From the NCBI GenBank assembly GCA_963714095.1, contig OY970230.1, positions 532,084 through 596,083 of the forward strand: a DNA stretch of 64,000 nt, in the 5' to 3' direction. Under the pieces are notes generated by a model, which was given only the letters and a program-made list of their open reading frames with translations, ran no database searches and was not told the origin of the DNA. Position numbers and translations under genes: made by a program. Shown here piece after piece: positions 41,748 through 64,000 of the stretch; the stretch's first letter is position 1, and each line of letters starts with the position of its first letter. Source of the stretch: Candidatus Gottesmanbacteria bacterium (GTDB lineage Bacteria; Patescibacteriota; Microgenomatia; UBA10105; UBA927).

Positions 41748-41750
41748 TAC

Positions 41751-44673: not shown

Positions 44674-44694
44674 AGCAAGCGAAGAATAGCACAC

Positions 44695-45165
44695 TTATAC
44701 AACTATCGGTAGCGGAAACGGAGTTTTCCTATATGTAAGATATAAGCCAATACTTTCACCATGATCAAATGCAAAAGCAGAGAGCGGAATAAGTTTGTCA
44801 ACCGGAATCCATTCAACTTTGGAAGATTCATGGTCCGGATCTCCGGTTTTTTGAATGGGCTTCACTAAAAATTCAATTGAAACATTCTGCCGGTCCTCGT
44901 GCGGCCGGTCGGGATTCGTATTGATGCGGAAAAGGGAAATAACCTCACAATCCCAGCCTGTTTCCTCTTTTACTTCACGGATAATGGCATGAGCAGCAGT
45001 TTCATCGCGTTCCAAGAATCCAGAAGGCAATCCCCACTTGCCGCTTTCCAAAAGATTCCCTGTCCGCTTCTCGAGGAGTAATTTTCCGTCCATCTCAATG
45101 ATGGCATGTACTACCACGTGCCGCAGGTTTGCCTTATTTCCGTTCTCAAATGTACAGGTGATCAT
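44695..45165 (-). CDS. NUDIX hydrolase
   Basis: Nudix box LPSGFLERDETAAHAIIREVKEETG; first gene of dnaG-rpoD operon on minus strand. Confidence 0.75.
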   Translation of the reverse strand: MITCTFENGNKANLRHVVVHAIIEMDGKLLLEKRTGNLLESGKWGLPSGFLERDETAAHAIIREVKEETGWDCEVISLFRINTNPDRPHEDRQNVSIEFLVKPIQKTGDPDHESSKVEWIPVDKLIPLSAFAFDHGESIGLYLTYRKTPFPLPIVV

Positions 45166-45182
45166 ATATGCACCTATTCAAT

Positions 45183-46373: not shown

Positions 46374-46472
46374 ATCTTTCTATGCTCGTTTATTCTACCA
46401 GATTCCGGTGTTTTCATATCTTCATGCCATTTCAAATAACAATGTACTCTATAGTGGTATAATTTTGATAAA

Positions 46473-47744: not shown

Positions 47745-47805
47745 GAATACGTTTCTTTAAAACCATACTCTTTACTTATTTTATTGCCCGGTTTACTCTT
47801 AAACT

Positions 47806-48603
47806 ATGGATGAAAATGAAAAAGGGTATGTTACGTTACTGCTTCTGATACTTATCGCATTCGGATTTTTATTAAGCGGCGGGCTGATGCCCCTGTTGCA
47901 GCAGCCTCCTGCAAATGCAACCGGGTATTCATTGATAAATCCACCTGTGAGTTCATCTTCATCCACACTTCAACTACAAAGTCTGAATTTTGTCCTTGGC
48001 GCCTGTGATCCAGGTTACTTGGAATCTGGAGAACCGGGAATTCTCTATGCTGCCAAACCAGGACCCAACGATATTGCATCTGCCACCGATACGATAAAAT
48101 TGTGGTATAGTGACGAACACGCATTAACCCTGGGAGTAGGAGCAATTTCTCCTATGGTTAATCATCCTGTAGACCAGATAGCAAATCCTCAGGTTGGTGA
48201 TACAACACAAAGAGATCCGTATGGATTCCCTCAATTTCCGGCGCTGTTTATTGTTGATGTGACGTTTGACCCAAAAAATACTGTCGGAGATGCACAACAT
48301 GGAGGAATACCGATTCCGCCGTCAATAGTGTATGGGACATGGAAAGCCGCAAATGCAGCTGATCCGCCGGCAAACGGCTGGAATGTCGGGGCGGGCGATC
48401 CTTTTCCTTCACAGCCTACCAATATTCAACACAGTGGCACCACCCGTATTGAGAATGAGTATGGTGCGGAAATAGAATGGAATATTAGCAGCTTGAATCT
48501 TGCTCCGGGGCATTCATATAAGGCACAATTTGTTGTTCATGACGGTGATTCAAATAGGGCTGGTGGAGATATTGGTATCGGATGCACAACGGTGAGAATG
48601 TAA
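47806..48603 (+). CDS. hypothetical membrane-anchored extracytoplasmic protein
   Basis: 265 aa; N-terminal TM VTLLLLILIAFGFLL. Confidence 0.45.
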   Translation: MDENEKGYVTLLLLILIAFGFLLSGGLMPLLQQPPANATGYSLINPPVSSSSSTLQLQSLNFVLGACDPGYLESGEPGILYAAKPGPNDIASATDTIKLWYSDEHALTLGVGAISPMVNHPVDQIANPQVGDTTQRDPYGFPQFPALFIVDVTFDPKNTVGDAQHGGIPIPPSIVYGTWKAANAADPPANGWNVGAGDPFPSQPTNIQHSGTTRIENEYGAEIEWNISSLNLAPGHSYKAQFVVHDGDSNRAGGDIGIGCTTVRM

Positions 48604-48608
48604 GATTG

Positions 48609-51029: not shown

Positions 51030-51060
51030 ACTTTATTATGCACAGAGATGCACAGGGTCG

Positions 51061-53265
51061 TCAATTGCTTTGGTCTTTTTCATCCAATGCTGCTTCTTGG
51101 CTCAGCTGCTTGAGATTTCCTTTCTTTACTGTTCCTTTCTCAAGCAATGTTTCTTGGTTTTCCTCTTTCTTAGCCAATTCCTCCAGTGCTCCCCTCCCTG
51201 CGGCATATTTGGCTTTAAGATATGCAATAACTTCCGTCTGTGAAAAGCCTCCTATGAGAAGAAATGGGAGAATGTTCGATACCGAGGAGAGGCCTTCTCT
51301 GACTTTCAGTGGATCAGGGGAAGACAATAACGTCATTGCCAGGGAAACGGCTTCTCCATCATCTTCAATCCATGCCCGTCTGTTGGAATATTTCTCAGGA
51401 ACATCGATTTGCTGATAATTCTCCAGCCATAATGACTTAACCGCTTCGTAGTCATCAAAACTTACTGTTTGTATCTGGTTCACCGCGGGAAAATTAATAA
51501 CAGGAATCGTTTGAGCAGTGGTAGATGCGGCAGAAAGAATAGATTTTGCCAACACATCACCTTTTGTTGTTTCCTGATTGAGCTGTTCACGAAGGACCGT
51601 AAAATGCTGTGCTTCCTGCGGTGTTGCACTCGTTTTCGGATTGGCAATTTTCTCGAGTGATTCCTGAGTTTGCTGCAACTGGTGAGTACTCACCTCTGTC
51701 CGGCTTAAACGTGCTGTTTCAAAGTTTACGATATCACGCATAGTAGGTATTGGAAAATTGATTAATCGTGTCGTCGGTCTTGCTAAAATCTCAGGCTTAA
51801 ATTGAGTAGCCATAACCGGCCGCTGGGTCGTCTGTGAAGATTGTTGTTTATTCTCCGTTACATTTGTTGTATACGTCTGGTGCGTTTGGTTGGTTGTTTG
51901 CTGCTGACTAAAAGCGTTGCCTACCTGGGTATATGATGTGCGTTCAGCCGGCCGTTCCGATTCCTGCTGTCGGGGGGTAACGGTTGTCACTCGTTTAATA
52001 CTGCTTTCTTCTTGTCTTGCAATGTTTTGCCTTAAAACGTTGCGGGCCTCTCCGGCAGGAAACTGCCCGGTTGGCAGGGGGGGAGGCTGCTGGGGTTTTT
52101 TCAGAAAGGCAAAACCTCCGCTTTGAAGCGTGTTTATATATCTGCCCATTGGGGTATTTCCGGGCTCATATTTTGCAAGAAAATCCAGAAGAATTTGCAG
52201 AAGAATAAAAGGCATAAAAATTGCCACCCAGAGCATAAGAAGTGCTATTACATACTGTGCATATGTATCGGGATAATTAAGACTGTTTGTCAAACTTAAT
52301 TGTTGTCCTGGTCCTCCTACAAGAATGCTGATTGCTGTCGGATATAACGGTGCTGGTTGAGATGCGGGTGGAAAAAACTGGAAAGGAAGAATAAGAATAT
52401 TACTCTTCCAAATAATCACGACTGCTGATAAAAACAAGGCAAAAAGCGGAGCATATAAGAGCCACCGTAAAAATTCCCTTATCCATATTTTTCCGGTACT
52501 TTTTAGTGACTCATACAAAAAAACGATCGGGTAAAGCGGCGATGCGACAAGAAAAAACCACAGGATAATTTTTCTCACCGAAAGAATGGAGCCTATGACA
52601 TAAAAAGTAACAGAGCTCAGTTGGATAAGAAGAAGGGACACGAATGCGGATTCATCAAAACCAATACCCGTCCTTCTGAAACCAGTAAAATTTTGTGGGG
52701 TAAATGATATGTTAACGATATCTTTACCGGCAATAACACCGCTCCCTGTACCCGCTGTCTGGAAAAAAAACATCTGAAAGATGTCGGCTATTTGATACAA
52801 AAAGCGGGCGATGGCAAAAGAAAAGGTTACAAACAGTAACGCGAAAATAAACTTTCTTGTAAATATCAGAATGCTGACATTCTTTCCTCCGTTTATAATA
52901 ATCAAGAACGCCGTCACCAAAATTGCCAAAATAAACACTGCATAGACAATATTTCTTATCGCAACCCAGACGTTTATCAGGGAGCTATCCACGTAATCCC
53001 ATTTATAATTGACGAGCGTCCAATCCATAAAATTTTCAGCCCGGGAGGCTGTTTGTCCTAAGAAAGTCACCATTGGATCCTGAACCCAATCACCGGGAGA
53101 AGTGGGAGAAACGGTGGGAGTAGGAGTGGGTGTTGGTTGGGGCGGTGTTGGGGTTTGAGCAAAGACGGTCGGAATCAATTGAGGGGAAGGAAAAAAACGT
53201 AATCCCGAAAATACGGGCTGGAAAAAAAACAATACGAGAATACTAATGAAAAGAAAACGTTTCAT
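51061..53265 (-). CDS. large polytopic membrane protein: signal peptide + PT linker, 5-6 TM core, long Gln/Thr-rich C-terminal tail (VirB6/TrbL-like architecture, tentative)
   Basis: 734 aa; hydrophobic segments between aa ~90-370. Confidence 0.5.
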   Translation of the reverse strand: MKRFLFISILVLFFFQPVFSGLRFFPSPQLIPTVFAQTPTPPQPTPTPTPTVSPTSPGDWVQDPMVTFLGQTASRAENFMDWTLVNYKWDYVDSSLINVWVAIRNIVYAVFILAILVTAFLIIINGGKNVSILIFTRKFIFALLFVTFSFAIARFLYQIADIFQMFFFQTAGTGSGVIAGKDIVNISFTPQNFTGFRRTGIGFDESAFVSLLLIQLSSVTFYVIGSILSVRKIILWFFLVASPLYPIVFLYESLKSTGKIWIREFLRWLLYAPLFALFLSAVVIIWKSNILILPFQFFPPASQPAPLYPTAISILVGGPGQQLSLTNSLNYPDTYAQYVIALLMLWVAIFMPFILLQILLDFLAKYEPGNTPMGRYINTLQSGGFAFLKKPQQPPPLPTGQFPAGEARNVLRQNIARQEESSIKRVTTVTPRQQESERPAERTSYTQVGNAFSQQQTTNQTHQTYTTNVTENKQQSSQTTQRPVMATQFKPEILARPTTRLINFPIPTMRDIVNFETARLSRTEVSTHQLQQTQESLEKIANPKTSATPQEAQHFTVLREQLNQETTKGDVLAKSILSAASTTAQTIPVINFPAVNQIQTVSFDDYEAVKSLWLENYQQIDVPEKYSNRRAWIEDDGEAVSLAMTLLSSPDPLKVREGLSSVSNILPFLLIGGFSQTEVIAYLKAKYAAGRGALEELAKKEENQETLLEKGTVKKGNLKQLSQEAALDEKDQSN

Positions 53266-53269
53266 TCTG

Positions 53270-53566
53270 TTAACGACCGAACCCCGGAATTTGTAAAATA
53301 TTTACAGCAATCACCTGGATAAAAACAAAGGCAAAAACTGCTAATAAAACCCCGGCGATAGATGAATAGAGATATCCCTTCCCTTTCTCTAACTGCATGG
53401 GATTACCTTGAGAGGTGAGAATAAGGTACCCTGCATAAATAATGCCGATGAGAGCAACGCCACCAATCAATCCCAGCCCAATGCCGTAAAATTTTTCAAC
53501 AAATCCAACCGGGGTATTAGGGACACATCCAAAATCAGTAATTGTTTCATTTGCCAGGCAGCTCAT
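53270..53566 (-). CDS. small two-helix membrane protein (TrbC/VirB2-pilin-like topology, tentative)
   Basis: 98 aa; two hydrophobic helices (GIGLGLIGGVALIGIIYAGYLIL / IAGVLLAVFAFVFIQVIAV) separated by short polar loop; 4-nt gap to downstream large membrane gene. Confidence 0.45.
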   Translation of the reverse strand: MSCLANETITDFGCVPNTPVGFVEKFYGIGLGLIGGVALIGIIYAGYLILTSQGNPMQLEKGKGYLYSSIAGVLLAVFAFVFIQVIAVNILQIPGFGR

Positions 53567-53671
53567 ACTATACTTACCGTAGCATATTTGTGCCGAAGAT
53601 AAAAGGTAAAACCAGGTGTCTGATGTGCCTGGCGGAAAGGGAGAGGTTTGAACCCAATTTTTTTCTGGTAA

Positions 53672-55654
53672 TTATCGCTGCGATAATTGATATCTATGAG
53701 AAATAATTGTAAGAGTGATGCACATTGGTAAACAACAGAACAATACTATCAATGGTTCCGGCTCTGTAAACGGTAAACTGAACTTATTCCACAACACCTC
53801 TCCCATGAGTGGCAGTTTTTTAAGAAGGTCCGTCTTTTTAACCACATATATTTCTCTCAGTGTGACATTTGTGTTTACCAGTGCCATATAGGTATTTGCA
53901 TCAGATTGATCGATAGATAAATGTAACTGATACTGTTTATCTCTTGATTGTGTTTCTATTGGTAGGCCAATAGTGAAAAATTTAGACTCATAAATTTGGT
54001 ACAACGGATATGCAGTGATATTTATCCTACGGCCGGTCTTGTCGGTAATTGCAGCAATCAAGTGTGCGTTTAGGTTCGCTCCCGGCATATAACCCAGTCG
54101 TGTCATTTCCTCCTTTGCCAACGGTCTTATTGCAAATTTGAGCATGCCGAGGTTGTCGTATGTCGCAACAAACGGGATCGTAAGCGTTACCGGAGTTATC
54201 GGTACTAACCGGGGCAGATTGTTGTTGCTCATATTGACAACAAGAGTTGCAAATGATGTTGGGACGCTATACCCATACCATACAAGAAATATCACCAGGC
54301 AGGCGGCAAGGATAAATCTTATTGATGCTGCATGTGTAAATTTCTGTAATTGTTGTTTACTCTGAACTAATAACCCCTTAGGGTGAAGAAAGTACGGACG
54401 CTCCATAGTAACATGAAGTACATATCCAAATATACCGATTAACCCGACAACAAATAGATTACGGGTTATCATCTGATAGAGTGTCGCAGGCTCACCGTAT
54501 CGACCAACAATTTCGATTGCAATCGAATGCGTAAGATACAGTGAATAGCTTACTGTTCCAAGCCAGATGAAGAATGGAGTTCGTAGCACGCGCGCCCATA
54601 CTGTTTGATGACTAAGCGTGATCAAAAATCCGAGAGAAAGCGGGAATACAATGAGGAAATTTTTAACGATTGAACTTGTCGGAATAAATATTCCGGCAAA
54701 TATACTCAATAGTGCTACTCCAAGTGGTATGACTGAGGGCAAACGTATAAGCATGGCATGGAACCGCTTCACGACGGGAGATCCGGTCGCGCCTCCAATA
54801 ATCGCCCCGGCGATAAAATACAGGATGAGATGTATCTGAAGCATTGAAAAAAAATAGATATGTTGATAGAGCATATATAAGCCAAAACAAAGAGGAAACA
54901 AAAGAACAATACTGATAATTGTCGTCACGGTTGATTTTGTTTGTCGAATGAGCTGTATCCCGGGCAAAAGAATGATGGGATAAAGAAGATAAAACGACAC
55001 TTCAGCAATAACGCTCCAATATACTCCATCCAGCTGACCGACATAGGTACCAAACGGTATAGTCATGGTCATATTCACAAGCGCATTCATCGCTGTTCGA
55101 ACGGTTGCCGGCCAAACGATGAAATACACAGCGCTCGGCACACGCATCTGAAGCACGATGTATGAAATGACTGTCAAAATTTGGACTATCAAAAATCCTA
55201 AAAAAATAATTTTTCCGATACGTGCCCGGTGTGGAGATCGCTGTATACATCGCCAAAGGAAACCCCCTATAGCCATTGCGACGATGAGTACGGCGGACAG
55301 AGCAAGCGGCGAAAACTGATTCCATTGCCATTTGATAATGGCAAGCGCTATACACATGACAACGAACGCCGGAAATATCCGGGTATATCGTTTCTGCCAA
55401 AAATCAAAAGCGGACGGAACGGTCGGATAAATCGTCGCCATGAGGTACCCGCTCAACATGAAAAAAATGAGCACTCCTATGCTGCCACTATTAATAATCA
55501 TACTGACGATCGGGTGAAACCACCCGGGAGTAGACGTATAAAGGAGTCCAAGATGGAGATGATTGAGAATAACCATGAGTATTGCCAGACCACGAAGTCC
55601 GTCTAGCGCAGCTATACGGTGTTTAGGTAGGGACATATGACTCTTGTCCATCAT
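53672..55654 (-). CDS. acyltransferase-3 family (OatA-like) membrane O-acyltransferase with C-terminal extracytoplasmic domain
   Basis: N-terminal hallmark ALDGLRGLAILMVILNHL; ~11 TM; start at MMDKSH inside ORF 53672..55729. Confidence 0.8.
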   Translation of the reverse strand: MMDKSHMSLPKHRIAALDGLRGLAILMVILNHLHLGLLYTSTPGWFHPIVSMIINSGSIGVLIFFMLSGYLMATIYPTVPSAFDFWQKRYTRIFPAFVVMCIALAIIKWQWNQFSPLALSAVLIVAMAIGGFLWRCIQRSPHRARIGKIIFLGFLIVQILTVISYIVLQMRVPSAVYFIVWPATVRTAMNALVNMTMTIPFGTYVGQLDGVYWSVIAEVSFYLLYPIILLPGIQLIRQTKSTVTTIISIVLLFPLCFGLYMLYQHIYFFSMLQIHLILYFIAGAIIGGATGSPVVKRFHAMLIRLPSVIPLGVALLSIFAGIFIPTSSIVKNFLIVFPLSLGFLITLSHQTVWARVLRTPFFIWLGTVSYSLYLTHSIAIEIVGRYGEPATLYQMITRNLFVVGLIGIFGYVLHVTMERPYFLHPKGLLVQSKQQLQKFTHAASIRFILAACLVIFLVWYGYSVPTSFATLVVNMSNNNLPRLVPITPVTLTIPFVATYDNLGMLKFAIRPLAKEEMTRLGYMPGANLNAHLIAAITDKTGRRINITAYPLYQIYESKFFTIGLPIETQSRDKQYQLHLSIDQSDANTYMALVNTNVTLREIYVVKKTDLLKKLPLMGEVLWNKFSLPFTEPEPLIVLFCCLPMCITLTIISHRYQLSQR

Positions 55655-55872
55655 AGCGAAGAGGGCAGGATGACTTACGAACTTTTTACGCACGAGTCCC
55701 CGCCTTCCGGGAGTATTATATACCGTCATTAACCGAATAATGAAAATGGGTATCTGTTCGCCCTAGTAAATATGTTTAGTAACCGAGAAATAGAGTTTGG
55801 GTTTAGTTTGCAGAATATCAAAATTGTCTTTGAAACCTTCCTATAACAACCAGCTTACGCTTAATTAATAAA

Positions 55873-56061
55873 TCATTTTAAGTGAATATAAGCCCAAATT
55901 CCAATTGCCACTATTTCAATAAGACTGATCAAAAATACTAACATACCAAGCGAGTGTATTCTTGAATGTATCCCATTGTTCTTAATGGCATAAAACAACA
56001 CGAAATTATTAACGGCTATAATAATTACAACAAAAACAATAAGGCTAGTTCTGAGTTCCAT
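55873..56061 (-). CDS. small two-TM membrane protein
   Basis: 62 aa hydrophobic. Confidence 0.25.
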   Translation of the reverse strand: MELRTSLIVFVVIIIAVNNFVLFYAIKNNGIHSRIHSLGMLVFLISLIEIVAIGIWAYIHLK

Positions 56062-56297
56062 AAAATATCCTTACAAATACATTGTCCTCTCAATTCAAAA
56101 AGGAATCAATTTTGAGGCTAATTTGCTCGCTCAATGAGACGATTTTCGTACGGTTAATTGGATATCTAACCTAGGGAAACCCGATTCGATTCTCCGGGAA
56201 ACCACACAATTACTTCAAAATTAATAGACGGATTCTAAACTTAAAATATGGTTATAGAAAAGATCAGAACATGTTATTAAAATTTTATATTTATAAA

Positions 56298-58592
56298 CTA
56301 AGGTTTAAGTATCTCCTTATAAAGATAAATTGGACCGCACCCCCAGGCATGGGAATAACTTGAGAGTTCTTCTGCCGTACCCGGAGTATAGTATTCATAT
56401 ATTGTAGTTGCCCCGTCTTTAATCATTCCGCCCCAATAGTTTCTCATTGTCTCTAAAGCCGTATCCCGTCTCCCTACATTAAGCAACCATTCAACAACCC
56501 AGCTTTCAGAAAATGGGTCAGCTGTATAGAGTTTTTCCCCGAAGCTCTTGGCAACCTCCTCAGACTTTCCAGGAGGAAAAATTCCGATTGATCCAGCCAG
56601 CGCGTTGGTAACTAAGCTTTCACCCTTAGATTGTTCTTCTAAGGAAAAACTATCCACGAATAGACCTGTTTTACTGTCGTATCCGTATTTAAGCAGATTG
56701 GCCTCAATTTTATCAGCTTGTTGGGTAAAATTTTCCTCTGGTTGATCGGCTTCCTTTGCTATCAACGCCGCCGAACGTAAAGCTTGGTAGTACCAAATTT
56801 GAAAACCAGTAATAAACTGTTTACTCCTATCGATTGGGGACCAGTCAATAAAGACCTGCCACTTAGTATCCAACAGTTCTTGTGAACCAGCATTTTTCTC
56901 AGCCCAGTTCATAACTTTTTCAACCGTTGGCCACATTTCTTTTGCAAAGGAAGCATCTTTAGTTTTAGTAAGATAATCGTCCACCCAAACAACCCATTGA
57001 AACACATAATCATAAATGATTATTGGATCTCCCGATGGTGACATGGCAGGTAGCAATCCATCATTATTTTGGCCTTGCGCAAATTGCCTAATCATTTGAC
57101 TAACTAATCTAGAATTATCGCCATTGACCATTAAACAGCGTGAAACTTCTCTGGCATCACCAATATACATAGCTTTTTCTCTCACAACGCTATCCTCGAA
57201 ATGATCTTGGACATTATTTTTTAAAGTATTTATTGCCAACTCGTATATCTGCTGATCAATTTCTTGCCCAAACTCAGTTATTTTTGGTTCAACAAAGGGC
57301 ATCCCAACTATTTTAAATCCAAGTTCTAGTTCGTTCTCACACGCCGATTTATCTATCTGGATATATCGGCCGGACCGGCGAGAAAACTGTTCCCAATTTA
57401 TTTCTCCTTCAGTAAATACTATTTTGTCATCCTGGGACGTCTCCTCAATCTTCTTATCAACAGTAAGTTTGTCTCCCCATGAGACTGAAAGAGTGCAGTT
57501 TTTCTCTAGAGAACCTTTGGCGGTGAGATAGCCTACCATTGTCCTACCTAAGTCATATACCCCCGAACCCATATCGTTAACCGGTTCTTTTTTCTCAACG
57601 AGTAAGGGGGTTTGTCTCGGCTCGGGAATATACTCTTTAAAATCAATTTTTTCGGGAGTTTTCCAAGACATATTGTCATCTTTTGTTAAATCAATTTCTT
57701 CCGAATATGCAGCAACCGGAGATATTTTTACACCATTTTTCCACCCGTCATTACGAGCAGTTTGCCAGAGACGGCTATCGGCAAGATTGTGAGTTATTAT
57801 TCCATCCTTTATCTCCCCACCCACTAGCAGTCCAGGCGAGGGATAAGTAGCGTGCTGGTGGTATTTTTCGTTGGAATAATTACAAACTATTAAGATTTCG
57901 TTTCTTCCTTTCCTAATATTTCCCCCTATGTCGATTTGGTCGTAATAAATCCTTGGGGGAACTGCATAACTTGGACCATGATACAAACTCTCTCCATTCA
58001 CAATTAATTGATAATCTCCCAAACAGGAGACTAAAATCTTTGCAGTGGACGAGGAATATTTTTGATTCCACTCATACCTAAAGCTTGTATATGGATAGAT
58101 ATTATTATCATCTCCATAACGCCAAATCCACACCAGGGATTTTGACCAGGGATATTTTAAATCCCAGTGAGTGTTAATAATTAGTTTATCCCAGGAGTCT
58201 CCAATTATTTTTGTAACAGGAACTAGCCACAAGAGAGTCAAAACCAAACCAACTAACACGATTTTTCGTCTTTGAGGTAGCACAATCAGTGACGTCAGAA
58301 CGATAATAATTGGCAAACAAATAAATAAGTATGCCAGCCTCTCATCCCACCAATGAATTCTTATCCAGGCGGGAAATAATGGAGAAGTAACTAAGTTTCC
58401 AATGTGGGAGTAGATTTTGTAGATCAAGTTTAATCCAAAATTTAACCGTTGCTGGGGTAGGACGTGTTTGCGAACCAGAAGTATGGCGCTCTCCCCTAAT
58501 CGATGTTTTGGATAAAATACTGAGGCTGATTCGAATCCAAGAAACAAGATTAACAGAAAAATGGTGATCCATATCAACATTTTTCTTTTCAT
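56298..58592 (-). CDS. membrane-anchored (N-terminal ~5 TM) protein with large C-terminal six-hairpin glycosidase-like domain (GH78/GH63/GDE-like)
   Basis: 764 aa; C-terminal WGGMIKDGATTIYEYY...SHAWGCGPIYL resembles (alpha/alpha)6 glycosidase C-termini; AT-rich. Confidence 0.45.
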   Translation of the reverse strand: MKRKMLIWITIFLLILFLGFESASVFYPKHRLGESAILLVRKHVLPQQRLNFGLNLIYKIYSHIGNLVTSPLFPAWIRIHWWDERLAYLFICLPIIIVLTSLIVLPQRRKIVLVGLVLTLLWLVPVTKIIGDSWDKLIINTHWDLKYPWSKSLVWIWRYGDDNNIYPYTSFRYEWNQKYSSSTAKILVSCLGDYQLIVNGESLYHGPSYAVPPRIYYDQIDIGGNIRKGRNEILIVCNYSNEKYHQHATYPSPGLLVGGEIKDGIITHNLADSRLWQTARNDGWKNGVKISPVAAYSEEIDLTKDDNMSWKTPEKIDFKEYIPEPRQTPLLVEKKEPVNDMGSGVYDLGRTMVGYLTAKGSLEKNCTLSVSWGDKLTVDKKIEETSQDDKIVFTEGEINWEQFSRRSGRYIQIDKSACENELELGFKIVGMPFVEPKITEFGQEIDQQIYELAINTLKNNVQDHFEDSVVREKAMYIGDAREVSRCLMVNGDNSRLVSQMIRQFAQGQNNDGLLPAMSPSGDPIIIYDYVFQWVVWVDDYLTKTKDASFAKEMWPTVEKVMNWAEKNAGSQELLDTKWQVFIDWSPIDRSKQFITGFQIWYYQALRSAALIAKEADQPEENFTQQADKIEANLLKYGYDSKTGLFVDSFSLEEQSKGESLVTNALAGSIGIFPPGKSEEVAKSFGEKLYTADPFSESWVVEWLLNVGRRDTALETMRNYWGGMIKDGATTIYEYYTPGTAEELSSYSHAWGCGPIYLYKEILKP

Positions 58593-58670
58593 ATCTATTT
58601 AATTAAGGGTTAATTTGTATATATTATTGTTTGTCAATTGGATCCACCTGATGGACAGGTTCAGAACCTA

Positions 58671-59000
58671 TTACAATTCTGTCTTGTCAATTAGTAGGTA
58701 AATATCAAAGGCCACTTCTTCATAGGGGTGAACTTTCTTAATTGCTTTAATTATTTCTTTGGCTTTGTCTTTCGGGCAAACAAATTCGATCCTCTCCTCT
58801 TCAACTTCTTCGGGTTTCCCAACTTCACCAATAGCTGGTCTTGCTCCCTTCTGGAGATTAAATCTACCTACACCTTTACTGGAGAAACTACAATTTTTGT
58901 AATTACCGATTACTCCACCACCAGCATCACCAATAGCTTTTCTAACAATATCTGTGTGGGTCAGTGGAACAAAAACGACAATCTTTACTATTTCTCCCAT
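58671..59000 (-). CDS. PII-fold protein homologous to the Nif3/YqfO insert domain (COG3323-like)
   Basis: 109 aa; KIVVFVP..H...V..A...AG.G.IGNY..CSF...G.G.F.....A.P.IGEVG....VEE.R.E.V.P pattern. Confidence 0.45.
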   Translation of the reverse strand: MGEIVKIVVFVPLTHTDIVRKAIGDAGGGVIGNYKNCSFSSKGVGRFNLQKGARPAIGEVGKPEEVEEERIEFVCPKDKAKEIIKAIKKVHPYEEVAFDIYLLIDKTEL

Positions 59001-59039
59001 AACTGAAGTATATCAAAAAGTTCTAATTGTGCCTATCTA

Positions 59040-59102
59040 GCTCCGGGCGGTAGAGGATGTTTGCACTTATTTTAGGTTCAAATCCCGCTTCCTGTCAGGC
59101 TA
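59040..59102 (+). repeat. repeat family R1, copy C (full: head + tRNA-T-arm-like middle + tail)
   Basis: gCTCCGgGCGGTAGAGGATGTTtGcACTTATTTtAGGTTCAAATCCCGCTTCCTgTcAGGCTA. Confidence 0.65.
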
Positions 59103-59181
59103 GGTTATATTTCCTACATCGCAAAGTCAGAACTCGTTTTTGTAACGGTACAAACACATATTTTAATCGAAAATATATGGT

Positions 59182-59198
59182 TGTACGTGATGGCGGAG
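59182..59198 (-). other. duplicated fragment of a tRNA-Ser 3' end plus 12-nt downstream flank (TGTAyGTGATGG-CGGAG), matches 63973..63989
   Basis: tgtacgtgatggcggag vs tgtatgtgatggcggag at the partial tRNA at window end; sequence diverges immediately after. Confidence 0.5.
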
Positions 59199-59583
59199 CA
59201 TACAGGTCTGGAACCCTTATGTCCGTATAATCCCCTCGTACTTCTTACTGGTATTGTACCAGATTGCGTTCTATAGTCGAAGCTAAATTAAACAGGTTTA
59301 TAATTGGGTTGTATATAATTTTTTTAGGTAAAGGAGATAAGCCAGGCGATAATACGGTTGAATTGTTTATGACGAAGAAAACGTTGGGTGTTAATACGAT
59401 TGAAAAACGAAGTGATAAATGGCAAGTAGTGTGATCGTTATGTGCGTATCCTTCGTTATGTATTATGTATATATAATAAAGGGCATTAGTATTTTTTCGT
59501 TATTAGCCTCAAAAAGTCGTACTTTCTGTGTAAACGCGCTTACACAGAAAAACTACAACATCTTCATAACCGAAAACTTTCTG

Positions 59584-59670
59584 CGGAGAGGGCGGGATTT
59601 GAACCCGCGATCACCTTGCGGCGATACGCGCTCTCCAAGCGCGCGCACTAGGCCACTATGCGACCTCTCC
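59584..59670 (-). tRNA. tRNA-Ser (anticodon GGA), type II
   Basis: GGAGAGG-TC-GCA-TAGTGGCCTAG-TGC-G-CGCGC-TTGGAGA-GCGCG-long variable arm-GCGGG-TTCAAAT-CCCGC-CCTCTCC-G. Confidence 0.85.
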
Positions 59671-59699
59671 AATAGCCATAATTATACTATAATGATCCC

Positions 59700-60611
59700 A
59701 TGTCTTCCCGAATGAAGGCTGTCTTCGTATTAATTCTTGCGGAACTTTTGTGGTCAACGTCCGGACTTGCCAAAATAGTAGTGCGGGAGCTAGATCCATA
59801 TGTAGCTGCGTTCCTGCGATTCTTTATTGCGTCTCTGGTCATCCTGCCGTTTTTTCTTAACGAGCACGTCCAGAGAAAAAATCTCATCAGGGATCTATTG
59901 CCGCTCTCTTTGGCAAGCGCCGCAAATATCCTGTTTTATTATGTCGGTCTCCAATTTTCTACCGCAAATGCTGCCACACTTATCTATGCGGGCGTTCCGC
60001 TGGTTACCGCACTTATTGCCCATCACATGATCGGTGAACGGCTTAATATGCAAAAAATTATCGGTATTTGTATCGGCCTTGTCGGTGTAGTATTCGTAGC
60101 ACTGTTACCCGCAATATTTCGCGGGGAATCCGTTACCGGCAATATCCGCGGGAATATCTTTTTCGTGTGTGCGGTACTGGCGTGGTCCTTGTATACTATC
60201 GGGTCACGCAAAGCTATAGCCAACCAAAAATATTCACCTCTTACAGTAGCCAGCATGTCCATTTTTACCACCGGCGCACTTTTTTTTATAATCAGCCTTT
60301 TTACATTTCAACCGCACTATTGGATAACCCTCAAACAGCCGTCGCTTCTGCTCCTTATTCTGCATCTCGGGACAATTGTTACTGTTGCCACGTTTCTTCT
60401 CTATCAGTGGGTCATTAAACATTCATCCGCGGGAACCGCAGCTCTGGGAAACTATATCGGCCCGATATTTGCTATCCTCAGTAATGTGATATTCCTGGGT
60501 GAAGTTATAACTCCTGCATTCATTCTCGGAACCGCGCTTATTCTTATCGGCATCGTGGTGATATCAGGAAGCGGCCTTCTGCAAGAAGCGAAAGATTGGA
60601 TAAACAAATAA
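59700..60611 (+). CDS. DMT-superfamily (EamA/RhaT) transporter
   Basis: 303 aa, 10 TM in two EamA halves. Confidence 0.8.
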   Translation: MSSRMKAVFVLILAELLWSTSGLAKIVVRELDPYVAAFLRFFIASLVILPFFLNEHVQRKNLIRDLLPLSLASAANILFYYVGLQFSTANAATLIYAGVPLVTALIAHHMIGERLNMQKIIGICIGLVGVVFVALLPAIFRGESVTGNIRGNIFFVCAVLAWSLYTIGSRKAIANQKYSPLTVASMSIFTTGALFFIISLFTFQPHYWITLKQPSLLLLILHLGTIVTVATFLLYQWVIKHSSAGTAALGNYIGPIFAILSNVIFLGEVITPAFILGTALILIGIVVISGSGLLQEAKDWINK

Positions 60612-60614
60612 TTG

Positions 60615-60686
60615 CGCTCTCGTGCAGAGTCGAACTGCAATCACACCCTTCGGAGGGGCGTATTCTATCCATTGAACTACGAGAGC
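60615..60686 (-). tRNA. tRNA-Arg (anticodon CCG)
   Basis: GCTCTCG-TA-GTTC-AATGGATA-GAAT-A-CGCCC-CTCCGAA-GGGTG-TGAT-TGCAG-TTCGACT-CTGCA-CGAGAGC-G; 5' end overlaps stop of CDS 60677..61090 by ~10 nt. Confidence 0.85.
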
Positions 60687-61090
60687 TTTCCCAAATCTCC
60701 ATTGAGTACAATCACTTTCATTGCATGCATCTCAACGCTGTAATCCATCTTCGGAACCGGATACAAAAGATATATCTTTTTATCCAACCCAAACGCGTAT
60801 CCCATCTCTAAAAACGTGTTGCCTCCGATGTAACCGTTTACTCCTTTTTTCTCATAATTCAAAACAAGTATCGCATCGGATTTTTCTATTTTTCTGAAGT
60901 GCTCGCGGATAAAATCATATTCTATTTTCGTTGATATTTTATCTGCATCCCGATTCATAAACGATTCATTCGTTTTTTTATTCCCGAGCTCTGTCGGCAC
61001 CAATACACGGAGGCCCTGCGCTTCGAGTTCTTTTTGCGCTTTTGCCATTTGTCGATAAAACTGCATGCTGCCGCAGATGGTGATAGTCAT
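60677..61090 (-). CDS. nucleoside 2-deoxyribosyltransferase-like (NDT fold) protein
   Basis: 137 aa; MTITICGSM...ILVLNYEKKGVNGYIGGNTFLEMGYAFGL matches NDT-like Rossmann motif; start codon only 3 nt downstream of tRNA-Ser 3' end. Confidence 0.5.
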   Translation of the reverse strand: MTITICGSMQFYRQMAKAQKELEAQGLRVLVPTELGNKKTNESFMNRDADKISTKIEYDFIREHFRKIEKSDAILVLNYEKKGVNGYIGGNTFLEMGYAFGLDKKIYLLYPVPKMDYSVEMHAMKVIVLNGDLGKLS

Positions 61091-61093
61091 AAG

Positions 61094-61182
61094 CGGAAAG
61101 GGCGAGATTCGAACTCGCGTAGGCCCTTTCGGACCTCCAAGGTTTTCGAGACCTGGCCGTTTAACCGCTCCGGCACCTTTCC
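61094..61182 (-). tRNA. tRNA-Ser (anticodon CGA), type II
   Basis: GGAAAGG-TG-CCGGAGCGGTTAAACGG-CCAGGT-CTCGAAA-ACCTTGG-variable hairpin AGGTCCGAAAGGGCCT-GCGAG-TTCGAAT-CTCGC-CCTTTCC-G. Confidence 0.8.
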
Positions 61183-61184
61183 CT

Positions 61185-61259
61185 TGGCGCTCCCGCGCAG
61201 AATCGAACTGCGATCAGAGGTTCCGCAAACCCCTATTCTATCCGTTAAACTACAGGAGC
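61185..61259 (-). tRNA. tRNA-Arg (anticodon read as GCG; G37), CCA encoded
   Basis: GCTCCTG-TA-GTTT-AACGGATA-GAAT-A-GGGGT-TTGCGGA-ACCTC-TGAT-CGCAG-TTCGATT-CTGCG-CGGGAGC-G-CCA; D-arm identical to tRNA-Arg(CCG); 2-nt spacer to tRNA-Ser. Confidence 0.7.
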
Positions 61260-61289
61260 CATAGCGGAGCTTATTATACCGCAAAAAGG

Positions 61290-61826
61290 TTATGAAGGCT
61301 TCTCGAGGGGAATTTTCTTTGACAACCATGAGGATGCGTTATCCATCCAACTTTTCTCCGGTTTTTCCCGGAAAGGAATATACTGGGCGATAAGTTTACG
61401 GACCAACGATTTATCCTGAACTCCTAAAAGGATAATAATACGCATGCCCATGATGGGCCGCAAGACCAATAAATCCTGCCCCCACTGCTCTTCAAACCAA
61501 AACTCAGAGAGCTCTTCCCACCGGTAATAATGCCCGGCACTTTCAACCCCCAAGTTGGTAATCCTGTGTGTTACGTCCTCCGGAGGTACAGTGGAAAGAA
61601 CAACAATAAGAAATACGATAGACACGGCAGCTGCAATGAGTAAATATTCCTGTGCGAATACTAAAATTATAACAAGAGGCAACATGATCACCCCGACATT
61701 GGTATAAAACTCTTTATCCCTCTTTTTAAACAAACGGGATGGGGAAGACCATGCGAGCAGTACCTCTTGTTGAACTTTTACCTGTGTATCGCCGGCATTA
61801 TCAACCATGAGATTAGTATATATCAA
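61290..61826 (-). CDS. hypothetical membrane protein (two TM)
   Basis: 178 aa. Confidence 0.4.
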   Translation of the reverse strand: MIYTNLMVDNAGDTQVKVQQEVLLAWSSPSRLFKKRDKEFYTNVGVIMLPLVIILVFAQEYLLIAAAVSIVFLIVVLSTVPPEDVTHRITNLGVESAGHYYRWEELSEFWFEEQWGQDLLVLRPIMGMRIIILLGVQDKSLVRKLIAQYIPFREKPEKSWMDNASSWLSKKIPLEKPS

Positions 61827-61866
61827 AAGAAAAGAAATCCAAAGGGCGGAGAACGGTTTACAGTGT

Positions 61867-61917
61867 TATAACCTATTATAAAACTACAATCCTACCTACG
61901 GAACAATTGAATTATAA
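61867..61917 (+). repeat. repeat family R2, copy a (preceded by GCGGAGAAC tRNA-3'-end-like motif at ~61849)
   Basis: tataacctattataaaactacaatcctacctacggaacaattgaattataa ~85% identical to 63311..63361. Confidence 0.6.
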
Positions 61918-61943
61918 CCCAAATTTAATTTATTAAATCTGAG

Positions 61944-62324
61944 TCAAGCATTCTTCGGGGAACCCCCAAAAGCTACCTCATTTCCATCCGGGTCGTTGTA
62001 TATAATTTTGCGGACGCCGTTTGAAAGAGTTTCGTTTTTCGTTGGTTGTAATCCACGTTCGGCTACTTGATTCATGAAAATATCAAGGTCACTAAGGAAA
62101 ACAAGATTAGAAGTATGACCTGCATGTTTAGGACGTACTGTAATATACACGTACCTATGTTCCGCAAGTTCCCATACTGCTTCTACATCATTAGGAAAGA
62201 ATGATGGTGAACGACCGAACAAACGCGTATACCAAACAAGAGATGTTGTGTAATCTTTGACGGGAAATCCAGCAAACAGATCGGTAGTTAGTTCATCTGA
62301 AAATACTCTTTTTGCCTTTACCAT
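61944..62324 (-). CDS. VOC (glyoxalase/bleomycin-resistance) family protein
   Basis: 126 aa; two beta-alpha-beta-beta-beta halves typical of VOC fold. Confidence 0.5.
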   Translation of the reverse strand: MVKAKRVFSDELTTDLFAGFPVKDYTTSLVWYTRLFGRSPSFFPNDVEAVWELAEHRYVYITVRPKHAGHTSNLVFLSDLDIFMNQVAERGLQPTKNETLSNGVRKIIYNDPDGNEVAFGGSPKNA

Positions 62325-62365
62325 TTCAAATCCATTATACGCCTAATTTTATGTATATAGGCACC

Positions 62366-62436
62366 TACAGTTCGAGGCTAATTTTTAATGCTCCGGGCGG
62401 TAGAGGATGTTCGAATCTTTTTTTTACTTATTTAAA
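62366..62436 (+). repeat. repeat family R1, copy D (tail-like CAGTTCGAGGCTAA precedes head; T8 tract inserted)
   Basis: acagttcgaggctaatttttaatGCTCCGgGCGGTAGAGGATGTTCGaAtCttttttttACTTATTTAAAC. Confidence 0.6.
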
Positions 62437-62616
62437 CTTCACGACATCTCTCAAGAAGTAAAGAAAAACCAGAACTGATGCTAAGAGAGTTAACCAATCA
62501 CGAATTGTATGTGATTCAAAAATATCATGGAAAGTCATCCAGTCGACAAACAAAAGCAAGAATACGATGATCCACATGAGGGTCGTTTTGATTTTCATAA
62601 TCGGTCTCATTTCCAT
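62428..62616 (-). CDS. small two-TM membrane protein
   Basis: ORF 62428..62673 trimmed to internal Met so that it abuts upstream small gene. Confidence 0.3.
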   Translation of the reverse strand: MEMRPIMKIKTTLMWIIVFLLLFVDWMTFHDIFESHTIRDWLTLLASVLVFLYFLRDVVKFK

Positions 62617-62789
62617 CGATAGAGATGCACGGCGATATACATCGCTAGCATCCCAAGGGCGAAGCCCGCACATACTGTGACAACGTCATGGAAAGGTTTC
62701 CAGATGACACCAAACCATGAGAGCATAAGAATAATCGCCCACACAACAGCAACTCCGATTACATACACATAGAGCGGTCGCTTGTTCAT
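62607..62789 (-). CDS. small two-TM membrane protein
   Basis: 60 aa. Confidence 0.3.
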   Translation of the reverse strand: MNKRPLYVYVIGVAVVWAIILMLSWFGVIWKPFHDVVTVCAGFALGMLAMYIAVHLYRWK

Positions 62790-62882
62790 ATGTACATTCT
62801 AGCACTGAGGTGTGACAATCAAAAGTTCTGGTGTCCAGTTGGGGTATCAAAAATCCGATTGAAAAATAAGGTTGAAAAAACA

Positions 62883-62910
62883 GCTCCGAGCGGTTGAGGG
62901 AGTTCAGGCT
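62883..62910 (+). repeat. repeat family R1, copy E (head fused directly to tail, middle deleted)
   Basis: GCTCCGAGCGGTtGAGGgAG|TTCAGGCT. Confidence 0.55.
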
Positions 62911-62941
62911 TTTTAAAGGATTAAGAGAGTATAATAAATAC

Positions 62942-63145
62942 ATGAGCAAGTCTACAAAGATTATCGTCGGTATTATGGCTGTTATTCTGATTATCGTAGT
63001 TGGCTTTGTATTGCTTAAAAAGCGAGGCGGGACACAGGGATCGTTATTCTCTCCTAACAACCCTTCCCAAAACGCCTCTGGTCTTGAGCATATTATTCGT
63101 CCACTCATGAATGGTGGTGCTCCCGGGGACGGGGGTGGCGGATAA
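62942..63145 (+). CDS. small membrane-anchored Gly-rich protein
   Basis: MSKSTKIIVGIMAVILIIVVGFVLL...GGAPGDGGGG; internal-Met start of ORF 62894..63145. Confidence 0.3.
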   Translation: MSKSTKIIVGIMAVILIIVVGFVLLKKRGGTQGSLFSPNNPSQNASGLEHIIRPLMNGGAPGDGGGG

Positions 63146-63204
63146 AAGGAGTGCTGGTGTTGTGTTAGTACCTTATATTGTCAGGACGCTCCAAACTCTA
63201 TTTT

Positions 63205-63276
63205 GCTCCGAGCAGTAGAGGATGTTCGGACTTATTTAAGGTTCAAATCCCGCTTCCTCTTAGCTTCAGGCTAAAC
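63205..63276 (+). repeat. repeat family R1, copy F (full-length reference copy)
   Basis: GCTCCGAGCaGTAGAGGATGTTCGGACTTATTTAAGGTTCAAATCCCGCTTCCTCTTAGCTTCAGGCTAAAC. Confidence 0.7.
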
Positions 63277-63310
63277 TTACTTTTGAGGCTGCGGAGAACC
63301 ATTATCAATA

Positions 63311-63361
63311 ATATAACCTACTTCAAGACTACAATCCTGCCTATGGAACAATTAAATTACA
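63311..63361 (+). repeat. repeat family R2, copy b (preceded by CTGCGGAGAACC, a tRNA-Ser 3'-end-like motif, at 63288)
   Basis: tataacctacttcaagactacaatcctgcctatggaacaattaaattacaa. Confidence 0.6.
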
Positions 63362-63404
63362 ACAGTCATTTTTTATTCAATTAACCAGCAAAGGTGCTTT
63401 TTAA

Positions 63405-63851
63405 TTATTTTATTTTCTTAGCAACCATACTGTATCCGCCACCAGGCCATTGCCATGCACCTTTAAAAGAGCTGCCTTCCTTATTAAATGTCCCTCTATA
63501 AAAGTTGTTTGAACCTTTTTCACCAAACCAAATGGTAAGCGTGTTATCAATCAGTTCGTAGACATAATCAAGAGTTAAACCTTCTGTAAAATGGTAAAAT
63601 CGGGACCATATATCTTGACTTGGTTTTTCTCCAACTTTTTGCAGGTGTCCAATCATCTCAATACCTCGTATTTGTTTTCCCTCATATTCAAGATCCACAT
63701 CTTGGATAAGGAAAGGGCCGCCCTCAGCCCATTTGTATTCTATCTGTCCTTTTGCATCACCGGATATTTCCCATGTTCCGACTAATTTCTCCAAATCCTT
63801 CAGGTTAGTCATATATTTCATCTCCTCTGTCTGTTTACCAGAACCATACAT
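63405..63851 (-). CDS. hypothetical cytoplasmic protein
   Basis: 148 aa (or 135 aa from Met-14 MTNLKDLEKL); Trp/Gly-rich beta-type sequence. Confidence 0.4.
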   Translation of the reverse strand: MYGSGKQTEEMKYMTNLKDLEKLVGTWEISGDAKGQIEYKWAEGGPFLIQDVDLEYEGKQIRGIEMIGHLQKVGEKPSQDIWSRFYHFTEGLTLDYVYELIDNTLTIWFGEKGSNNFYRGTFNKEGSSFKGAWQWPGGGYSMVAKKIK

Positions 63852-63875
63852 GTAATTTATCCTGGAACTGTCATG

Positions 63876-63907
63876 AGGTTCAAATCCCGCTTTCTCTCAA
63901 GCTAAAG
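63876..63907 (+). repeat. repeat family R1, copy G (middle + tail only)
   Basis: AGGTTCAAATCCCGCTTtCTCTcAaGCTAAAG. Confidence 0.55.
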
Positions 63908-63984
63908 TCACTTTTCAGTTAGAACGTGCTTTTGTGATGCTCTAGATTGTCAGAATAACCCGTTTTTTATTTTGTATGTGATGG

Positions 63985-64000
63985 CGGAGAGGGTGGGATT
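63985..64000 (-). tRNA. partial tRNA (3' acceptor CCTCTCC-G + T-stem; Ser-like), truncated by window end
   Basis: ggCGGAGAGGGTGGGATT parallels + strand of tRNA-Ser(GGA) tgCGGAGAGGGCGGGATTtgaacc. Confidence 0.4.

Follow-up and report, generated by a model that had tools for sequence, protein, structure and literature searches.

The tandem accretion of integrated elements and of cis-mobilizable elements (CIMEs) at tRNA-gene 3' ends has been described for streptococcal integrative and conjugative elements and integrative and mobilizable elements (PMC5704250). The tRNA sites of tyrosine integrases share 25-76 bp, while serine-recombinase elements are reported to have very short direct repeats (PMC5704250, PMC8092301) and, in the cases described, usually integrate within protein-coding genes (PMC5704250). 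We analysed 64,000 nucleotides of a Candidatus Gottesmanbacteria genome (GenBank assembly GCA_963714095.1, contig OY970230.1, positions 532,084 to 596,083), referred to as the window, whose right-hand end carries a cluster of tRNA genes. The segment from 55.6 to 64 kb is probably a hotspot of site-specific insertion at the very 3' ends of two tRNA-Ser genes, occupied by stacked, decayed modules devoid of a recombinase. A preliminary description of this DNA had proposed a tRNA 3'-end insertion hotspot over a shorter region; the proposal is borne out by empty sites, by differing inserts at one nucleotide and by strain polymorphism for an island, and the hotspot reaches beyond the region first proposed.

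As previously described, this end of the window contains four tRNA genes on the minus strand, on which ARAGORN and Rfam agreed, and a fifth truncated at the edge. These genes and the conserved block around them are the following:

59583-59670, minus strand: tRNA-Ser(GGA), intact (ARAGORN, Rfam)
60614-60686, minus strand: tRNA-Arg(CCG) (ARAGORN, Rfam)
61093-61182, minus strand: tRNA-Ser(CGA) (ARAGORN, Rfam)
61185-61259, minus strand: tRNA-Arg(GCG) (ARAGORN, Rfam)
61290-61808, minus strand: conserved 172-aa gene, downstream of the tRNA-Ser(TGA) flank
59583-61808, no single strand: conserved core block of mixed content, GC 0.46, with gene order shared by L046-L050, L059 and L062
63982-64000 (19 nt), minus strand: 3' end of tRNA-Ser(TGA), cut by the window edge, which anchors the right-hand array

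The L numbers denote the other contigs compared. The tRNA-Ser end at the window edge (TGGCGGAGAGGGTGGGATT, with TCTCCGCC at 63983-63990) is identical to the 3' end of tRNA-Ser(TGA) in L046 and L062, and this identity, together with synteny, assigns the truncated gene to tRNA-Ser(TGA). tRNA-Ser(GGA) is followed by CAG (no encoded CCA; 59580-59583) and the tRNA-Ser at the edge by CCA (63982-63984); the core copies described below keep this difference (CCGCAG versus CCGCCA), which shows the tRNA with which each junction last recombined.

In the related contigs the backbone begins with SmpB, ComF, TPK, tRNA-Ser(GCT) and tRNA-Ser(TGA), and continues with the core block, in the order 172-aa gene, tRNA-Arg(GCG), tRNA-Ser(CGA), NDT-like gene, tRNA-Arg(CCG), EamA transporter (on the opposite strand) and tRNA-Ser(GGA), followed by NUDIX, DnaG and RpoD. 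The window keeps this backbone, with RpoD, DnaG and NUDIX at 41751-45165, and carries extra DNA at both outer tRNA-Ser genes. The GC content of the inserts is 35-41% versus 46-48% in the conserved blocks. An assembly artefact is not the source of the repeats, since two other sequencing runs gave independent Logan contigs that are collinear with the window over 57803-62446 and 62726-64000. The suggestion that an integrase might lie just past position 64000 finds no support in the synteny, which predicts tRNA-Ser(GCT), TPK and ComF there.

The insertion at tRNA-Ser(TGA) was delimited by comparison with L062, where the site is empty and the tRNA end runs directly into the leader of the 172-aa gene (...CCCACCCTCTCCGCC/CTTTGGTTTTCC...GATATATACTAATCTC-ATG, the slash marking the junction and the flank beginning CTTTGG). 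The window reads ...AACCGTTCTCCGCC/CTTTGGATTTC...ATG at this flank, and the tRNA end itself (...CTCTCCGCC/ATCACATAC) lies 2.14 kb off, at 63983. The empty junction and the direct repeats in the window therefore indicate that 2.14 kb were inserted between direct repeats of TCTCCGCC. A second junction within the insert (R2b' followed by TCTCCGCAG, core at 63289-63297) splits it into two modules. On the minus strand, module 1 extends from 63981 to 63289 (Q arm, one open reading frame (ORF) and arm R2b; GC 37%) and module 2 from 63288 to 61845 (Q arm, four small ORFs and arm R2a; GC 41%):

63866-63981, minus strand: Q(e) arm, the tRNA-proximal arm of module 1; starts TCACATACAA and holds the inverted T-arm mimic R1e (63876-63897)
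63405-63851, minus strand: 148-aa ORF, cargo of module 1, no family match
63289-63363, minus strand: R2b, distal arm of module 1, ending in the core TCTCCGCAG at 63289-63297
63198-63288, minus strand: Q(d) arm, equal to R1d, proximal arm of module 2, with a T-arm mimic (63239-63260) and a palindrome arm (63205-63231)
62943-63145, plus strand: 67-aa membrane ORF, cargo of module 2, gene also called on Logan contig L001
62883-62909, plus strand: R1c, a diverged copy of the dispersed palindrome arm only
62428-62789, minus strand: a pair of small membrane ORFs (81 and 60 aa) that overlap, part of the module 2 cargo, no family match
62390-62416, plus strand: R1b, palindrome arm with a T-run after it, 12 nt beyond the stop codon of an opposite-strand ORF
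61944-62324, minus strand: 126-aa VOC/glyoxalase-family ORF, cargo of module 2 (Pfam PF00903, E = 3e-4)
61845-61918, minus strand: R2a, distal arm of module 2, ending in the core TCTCCGCC at 61845-61852
61809-61844, minus strand: conserved flank CTTTGGATTTC...GATATATACTAATCTC, leader of the 172-aa gene and original sequence downstream of tRNA-Ser(TGA)

Each of the two modules terminates in a 6-9-nt copy of a tRNA 3' end. The core of R2a (TCTCCGCC, 61845-61852) is a direct repeat of the tRNA-Ser(TGA) 3' end at 63983-63990, and that of R2b (TCTCCGCAG, 63289-63297) is identical to the 3' end plus 3 nt of tRNA-Ser(GGA). The tRNA-Ser 3' fragments that had been noticed outside any tRNA thus sit exactly at junctions (59191-59198, 61845-61852 and 63289-63297), with one correction: of the two places where the same fragment had been read, only 63289-63297 has CTGCGGAGA, and 61845-61852 reads GGCGGAGA. 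The R2 arm occurs twice in the window (61846-61918 and 63291-63363; 79% identity over 73 nt versus 0 copies expected), and R2a is 86% identical to the R2 of L026 and 79% to that of L093. As for the proximal arms, Q(e) is paralogous to 59074-59190; its counterpart in L093 (15957-16072) shares 85% identity over 116 nt and likewise comes after ...CTCTCCGCCA. Q(d) shows 89% identity over 56 nt with the sequence that lies immediately downstream of an intact tRNA-Ser(GGA) in L085 and L093.

The same site is occupied differently in other relatives. It is empty in L026 and L085-L093 as well as in L062; it holds a 155-aa ORF and a bMG3-domain gene in L048-L050 (distal end ...ACACCGCC/CTTTGG), a VOC-like ORF and half an R2 in L059-L061 (...TATTCCGCA/CTTTGG), a 358-aa ORF in L063, and GIY-YIG and NUDIX genes in L046. 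The VOC-like ORF of L059-L061 has a diverged 3' end at the position matching the VOC ORF of the window. The conserved flank starts at the identical nucleotide in L062, where it comes straight after the tRNA, and in L048, L059 and L063. In the window, tRNA-Ser(GGA) and the 3' end of tRNA-Ser(TGA) at the edge are intact, and the inserts begin 0-2 nt after ...CTCCGC(C).

A recombinase-carrying element was found at the second site, tRNA-Ser(GGA), in a relative. L048 and L049 encode an identical 171-aa protein, an identical 111-aa protein is shared by L048/L064/L067 and L049, and this lineage is polymorphic among strains for the island. In L049, tRNA-Ser(GGA) is intact and abuts the EamA start, the site being empty there and in L062, whereas L048 keeps only AAGCGGAG at EamA, followed by CATACGGGTCTGGAACCCTTATGTCC... 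The intervening DNA is an 18.5-kb phage-derived island, which was followed from L048 via L064 and L067 and ends at an intact tRNA-Ser(GGA). Its junctions read CCCCTTCCGC/AAGTATCC... and ...CCCGTATGCTCCGC/TTATG (in longer form ...GTATGCTCCGC/TTATG) and have only about 5 nt in common; the target site is ...CCCGCCCCTTCCGC/TTATG... and the reconstructed attP ...GGGTTCCAGACCCGTATGCTCCGC/AAGTATCCTATAG... The sole recombinase of the island is a 431-aa protein (L067 7258-8553) with Resolvase, Recombinase and Zn_ribbon_recom domains and a match to the phrog_95 integrase (E = 1e-59), and its gene adjoins one island end. Other products of the island are the small and the large subunit of a terminase (phrog_38, E = 1e-58), a restriction-modification enzyme of the MmeI type, one PLD-SNF2 and one ParB-methyltransferase protein, and seven small uncharacterised proteins.

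A counterpart of this island end lies next to tRNA-Ser(GGA) in the window, followed by a further module:

59199-59582, minus strand: putative island remnant of 384 nt between tRNA-Ser(GGA) and the displaced 3' fragment, GC 0.35
59191-59198, minus strand: displaced tRNA-Ser 3' fragment CTCCGCCA
59033-59190, minus strand: Q(a) arm, made up of R1a and a spacer starting TCACGTACAA, proximal arm of the fourth module
55873-59000, minus strand: cargo of the fourth module, comprising a 109-aa ORF, a 764-aa rhamnosidase-like glycoside hydrolase and a 62-aa membrane ORF
55656-55724, minus strand: P3 arm, which closes the fourth module distally; it carries a TATAAT box and GTTCGTAA, has the tRNA-Ser-like end CCCTCTTCGC and abuts the ATG of an acyltransferase

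Aligned with the EamA-side end of the L048 island, positions 59191-59304 (TGGCGGAG/CATACAGGTCTGGAACCCTTATGTCC...) show 81% identity over 102 nt (E = 7e-22), the match joins the tRNA fragment at the same position in both, and the conserved island-end arm covers 59199-59304 of the remnant. Because of this homology at the tRNA fragment, the 384 nt are best regarded as the deletion remnant of such an island, that is, to judge from the alignment, of an element of the large-serine-recombinase type. The direct repeats of the tRNA 3' end at this locus are short, namely GCGGAG at 59583-59588 and 59193-59198, and CTGCGGAGA at 59581-59589 and, in the other array, 63289-63297.

The fourth module spans 3.5 kb from Q arm to P3 arm. 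Its proximal part is similar to that of module 1 over about 115-125 nt (59074-59198 versus 63876-63989); the stretch TGTAyGTGATGGCGGAG, reported earlier at 59182 and 63973, was recovered in this paralogy as TTGTAyGTGATGGCGGAG at 59181 and 63972. The cargo genes are absent between tRNA-Ser(GGA) and NUDIX in L062. In L093 the P3 arm has one counterpart at 15885-15975 (81% identity, 91 nt aligned) and another that abuts NUDIX (78% identity, 63 nt aligned). From tRNA-Ser(GGA) to NUDIX, L093 reads tRNA-Ser/Q(d), Fe-hydrogenase-like ORF, 189-aa ORF, P3/Q(e), 243-aa ORF, R2'/..., 229-aa ORF, P3/NUDIX, so that the order of parts (Q, P3, R2') recurs there, and none of them is present in L062, where the tRNA comes directly before NUDIX. 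In L026, R2 abuts EamA, at the place where tRNA-Ser(GGA) sits in L046-type genomes. Modules 1, 2 and 4 and the 384-nt remnant all have junctions on both sides and no recombinase was found inside them; an integrase within the element occurs only in the island of the relative.

The P3 and R2 arms bear on a different explanation, namely that homologous recombination or local duplication made the arrays without any site-specific recombinase. Circular DNAs with a tRNA-Ser-like segment might have integrated by a Campbell-type event, or the unit of tRNA-Ser plus flank might have been duplicated by unequal crossing-over, and the redundant tRNA copies would then have decayed into R2, P3 and the short cores. 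The P3 arms do resemble shortened tRNA-Ser genes that keep the TATAAT box, and P3 sits where the intact tRNA-Ser(GGA) sits in L062, against the ATG of the next gene; R2' likewise starts with a TATAAT-like box and ends tRNA-Ser-like, R2a' and P3_1 are related at z = 6.7, and the flips of tRNA-Ser genes between lineages suggest recombination among paralogous copies. However, most of the P3/R2/tRNA homology tests were not significant (z < 2.5), and the descent of P3, R2' and the island arm from tRNA-Ser, although suggestive by eye, was for this reason not adopted. Furthermore, the recent event that separates L048 from L049 shares about 5 nt at the crossover, which is too little for homologous recombination, and the island involved has a serine recombinase, while independent inserts begin at one nucleotide before CTTTGG. 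We therefore consider homologous recombination or local duplication an unlikely origin of the arrays.

Under site-specific insertion, the elements would have entered by recombination within the last 5-9 nt of tRNA-Ser, most likely catalysed by large serine recombinases. Later arrivals would have used the regenerated tRNA end, thus producing the tandem stacking, and the elements would afterwards have lost their recombination genes to become CIME-like modules, which may now be inert remnants or movable only by a recombinase encoded elsewhere. A serine recombinase is favoured because the cores are very short, unlike the 25-76 bp of tyrosine integrases; neither the window nor the island of the relative yielded a tyrosine recombinase. 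Accretion by a classic tRNA integrase, as put forward in the preliminary description, is therefore not what the footprint indicates, with cores of 5-9 nt and a large serine recombinase as the site-linked enzyme. The junctions, the empty sites and the homology to a recombinase-bearing island are direct observations, and from these we infer both the enzyme behind the small modules and their present state of mobility.

Several points weigh against this interpretation. No recombinase was detected in the window by Pfam in 57 ORFs, a set that takes in all those of 200 aa or more apart from two that overlap larger genes, or by tblastn with two large serine recombinases, in agreement with the integrase-free window reported earlier. 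The R2 and Q arms, and likewise the P3 arms, are nowhere next to a recombinase gene in the contigs examined, and the tRNA-proximal side of the 384-nt remnant has no homology to the other end of the island. TCTCCGCC occurs 3 times in the window against 1.3 expected; the cores being short, the weight of the evidence comes from their position and not from their number. In addition, the Q arm may be a flank or terminator native to the downstream side of the tRNA-Ser genes instead of an element arm, in which case the junctions would represent exchanged flanks. Finally, no evidence of an excised or circular form was obtained, the two other assemblies being collinear with the window.

A more active system can also be envisaged, in which the modules are working cassettes of one to four genes, captured, stacked and exchanged at paralogous tRNA-Ser 3' ends by a recombinase acting in trans. 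We regard this as distinctly unlikely. If it were true, a large serine recombinase encoded by the chromosome or by a phage would act on what would functionally be a tRNA-anchored analogue of the integron in a reduced-genome bacterium of the candidate phyla radiation (CPR), and the action of this enzyme on inverted sites would, as a side effect, have flipped the tRNA-Ser genes.

Further recombinase genes were observed in the related contigs. A 515-aa large serine recombinase lies beside SmpB in L048 and L049 (1700-3247); it lies between SmpB and ComF, along with a small HTH gene and five uncharacterised ORFs, and the group probably represents a further integrated element in this neighbourhood. 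L046 has, some 450 nt downstream of tRNA-Asn, a stretch (14790-15830) that tblastn matched to a serine recombinase and in which no gene is called. RpoD and tRNA-Asn, neighbours in relatives (L046 13148-14346), stand about 6 kb apart in the window (35656-42842), where the gap holds IMPDH, adenylosuccinate synthetase, adenylosuccinate lyase and a GH18 gene; this interval may be another tRNA-linked variable site. L048 and L049 also have a 328-aa LAGLIDADG-type ORF (10705-11691) between tRNA-Arg(GCG) and tRNA-Ser(CGA), which are 2 nt apart in the window. A scan of a viral contig collection returned no matches to the R1 arm, the R2 core or the island arm, and the 16 matches to an R2 16-mer in that collection were discarded as chance hits in coding DNA.

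The orientation of the tRNA-Ser genes also varies among closely related lineages. Genomes of the L046/L049 type carry tRNA-Ser(GGA) in the reverse of the orientation that it has in the window, L062 and L063 (window 59583-59670, L046 10153-10242, L049 13204-13293, L062 5646-5733, L063 13352-13442), and L085 (5634-5931) has the tRNA-Ser(GCT)/(TGA) pair inverted together with an extra tRNA-Ser, with anticodon ACT according to ARAGORN. A single inversion, either between two tRNA-Ser genes or of the tRNA-Ser(GGA) segment, was rejected as the cause of the order in the window, since it does not predict the flanks observed and L062 and L063 have the same tRNA orientation as the window. To the left of the fourth module, about 10 kb of further lineage-specific DNA (45183-55655) separate the P3 arm from NUDIX. 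Its genes encode an acyltransferase-3, a ClpB-type ATPase, a 734-aa protein with no assigned function and three membrane proteins (265, 423 and 396 aa), of which the 396-aa one is weakly GT87-like. No recognisable core was seen at the NUDIX boundary (45166-45182), and no recombinase was found in the 14-kb lineage-specific insert as a whole (45183-59000), whose genes are of the envelope type (acyltransferase, glycoside hydrolase, GT87-like, ClpB-type ATPase).

The repeat R1, which had been put forward as an att scar, is something else: a composite of two unrelated things, an intergenic palindrome and the inverted T-arm copy of the Q arm. At least four copies had been counted. The repetition is indeed far beyond chance, with 5 occurrences of a 22-nt 5' motif against 0.00 expected and 3 of a 20-nt 3' motif (plus 1 in a real tRNA) against 0.02, but only two copies are of full length (59033-59102 and 63198-63267), and the remainder are half copies, with the 5' half alone at 62390 and 62883 and the 3' half alone at 63876. 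The imitation of a tRNA-Ser 3' end that had been read in R1 is real for the 3' half, which matches the T-loop-to-acceptor segment of tRNA-Ser(GGA) at 19 of 21 nt and ends just before the CCGC core; the 14-nt GGTTCAAATCCCGC is an exact inverted match to the T-arm of that tRNA, the half copy as a whole being inverted relative to the neighbouring tRNAs. The 5' half has no tRNA similarity (z <= 1.5 for its 30 nt against five tRNAs). The view of R1 as a decayed tRNA was accordingly dropped, only 21 nt being tRNA-like and R1 having no Rfam tRNA match.

Evidence for the place of the 3' half comes from L093, where an R1-type 3' half lies 38 nt downstream of an intact tRNA-Ser(GGA) and forms a 20-bp inverted repeat with it. 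The 3' half belongs to the Q arm, because this inverted T-arm copy pairs with the adjacent tRNA-Ser(GGA). The Q arm itself is either a native, terminator-like flank of tRNA-Ser or the tRNA-proximal arm of a module.

The 5' half (GCTCCGAGCGGTAGAGGATGTTCGGAC) is found six times in the window, always on the plus strand (31559-31585, 32835-32861, 59040-59066, 62390-62416, 62883-62909 and 63205-63231). Two of these copies lie outside the hotspot:

31559-31585 and 32835-32861, plus strand: further copies of the dispersed palindrome arm, far from any tRNA-Ser

Altogether 22 copies were collected from the window and ten other contigs, eight from metagenomes and two from metagenome-assembled genomes (L014, L026 and L051-L058). 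A scan of a genome collection with the R1 arm gave 41 matches, of which 39 fall in a conserved actinobacterial gene and only L014 and L026 are relevant. The copies stand between ordinary genes, most of them just past the stop codon of an opposite-strand gene, this stop being the first feature met after the T-run. Complete palindromes are imperfect, about 85 nt long, and fold at z of about -3.3; the short R1-arm hairpin is 92% paired, with one compensatory change among 17 distinct copies (as in 93 of 500 shuffles). The 5' half thus looks like a repeat of the repetitive extragenic palindromic (REP) type or a bidirectional terminator, spread across the lineage. One class of palindromes has a ribosome-binding site (AAGAGG) and a mini-ORF of 5-6 codons (MLMLY* or MLVLFY*) about 35-45 nt upstream of the arm (L057 3795-3860 and 2150-2213, L053 441-505 on the minus strand, window 63146-63204); the mini-ORF resembles a leader peptide, and there is usually no same-strand gene downstream to regulate.

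A structured RNA was also considered as the identity of R1 and R2 and discarded. Rfam, even at E values up to 10, found the four tRNAs only, and for R2 a consensus structure was lacking on the plus strand, while the minus strand gave a weak hairpin rich in G-U pairs. The repeats accordingly did not turn out to be conserved RNAs with covariation.

These folds raise the question of whether R1, R2 and the Q arm are simply ordinary regulatory DNA, i.e., terminators and promoters of the tRNA operon region, with the differences in gene content due to unrelated insertions and deletions. The R1 5' arm is a hairpin followed by a T-run, two copies of which a scan called terminator-like, and its usual location past opposite-strand stop codons holds at many unrelated loci. 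The Q arm and the tRNA 3' half of L093 together form a terminator-like hairpin (-40 kcal/mol, z = -5.7), and TATAAT boxes are present in R2' and P3 upstream of the next gene. Regulatory DNA leaves unexplained, however, the cores at insert boundaries, the empty sites, the island-end homology and the low GC of the inserts; moreover, R2 is 86% identical where the 172-aa proteins are about 70% identical (an estimate by eye), and it is absent from closer relatives. As an account of the whole locus it is in our view very improbable.

The palindromes might alternatively be attC-type sites of an integron-like cassette array, with an integron integrase nearby outside the window. Full copies are imperfect hairpins of about 85 nt whose outer boxes end in AAC and begin with GTT (GTCCGAAC ... 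GTTCGGAC), and they follow stop codons in one orientation at spacings of about 0.5-1.6 kb (window, L057, L053 and L051). Yet the boxes, (G)TCCGAAC and GTTCGGA(C), do not fit RYYYAAC/GTTRRRY, the palindromes flank scattered housekeeping-type genes (cysteine synthase, alcohol dehydrogenase, the secA neighbourhood), and no tyrosine recombinase was detected in the window or in the eight palindrome-bearing metagenome contigs. As the insert boundaries coincide with tRNA cores and R2/P3 arms rather than with palindromes, an integron is scarcely credible here.

Decayed mobile elements stacked at a tRNA are a known kind of feature, here in a little-studied, new lineage; since hotspots at tRNAs and tandem elements in decay are already familiar, what the locus adds conceptually is modest. 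CPR genomes are tiny, and little is known about how these bacteria gain genes. The tRNA-Ser cluster of a Gottesmanbacteria clade is a recurrent entry point for foreign DNA, resolved here to the single nucleotide: a phage-derived island with restriction-modification and helicase-nuclease genes exemplifies the entry, and remnants persist as small modules of accessory genes. The locus also suggests a tRNA 3' end as the candidate target of a large serine recombinase, a class of target that is unusual for these enzymes and could be examined as a new attB/attP pair.

In comparison with known systems, the R1 5' half resembles REP sequences, bacterial interspersed mosaic elements and bidirectional terminators in being dispersed, intergenic, imperfect and placed after stop codons, with many copies and a loop that is conserved as well; it differs in the length of about 85 nt of complete copies, in the ribosome-binding site and mini-ORF of some of them and in its restriction to a narrow Gottesmanbacteria lineage. 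The arrays share with tyrosine-integrase islands the tRNA 3'-end target, the partial 3' copy at the far boundary and the variable occupancy, but have cores of 5-9 nt instead of 25-76 bp (PMC8092301) and no tyrosine recombinase detected in the window or in the relative's island. Elements of the phiC31/Bxb1/TP901-1 type are matched by the relative's island, with its 431-aa recombinase near one end, very short repeat and terminases, and the window has in common with such elements about 100 nt of homologous island end; unlike in usual serine-recombinase elements, the crossover falls here within the final nucleotides of tRNA-Ser, which remains intact, the enzyme not being found in the window. Streptococcal CIMEs differ from the present modules, which are of 0.7-3.5 kb with one to four genes and cores of 5-9 nt rather than tens, and which reside in a CPR host with no known conjugative partner element, where cis mobilisation by a neighbour is only putative. 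The likeness to CIME accretion lies in the att-like junctions at a tRNA 3' end with loss of the recombination genes, in the head-to-tail stacking on a regenerated tRNA end and in a cargo that varies among strains.

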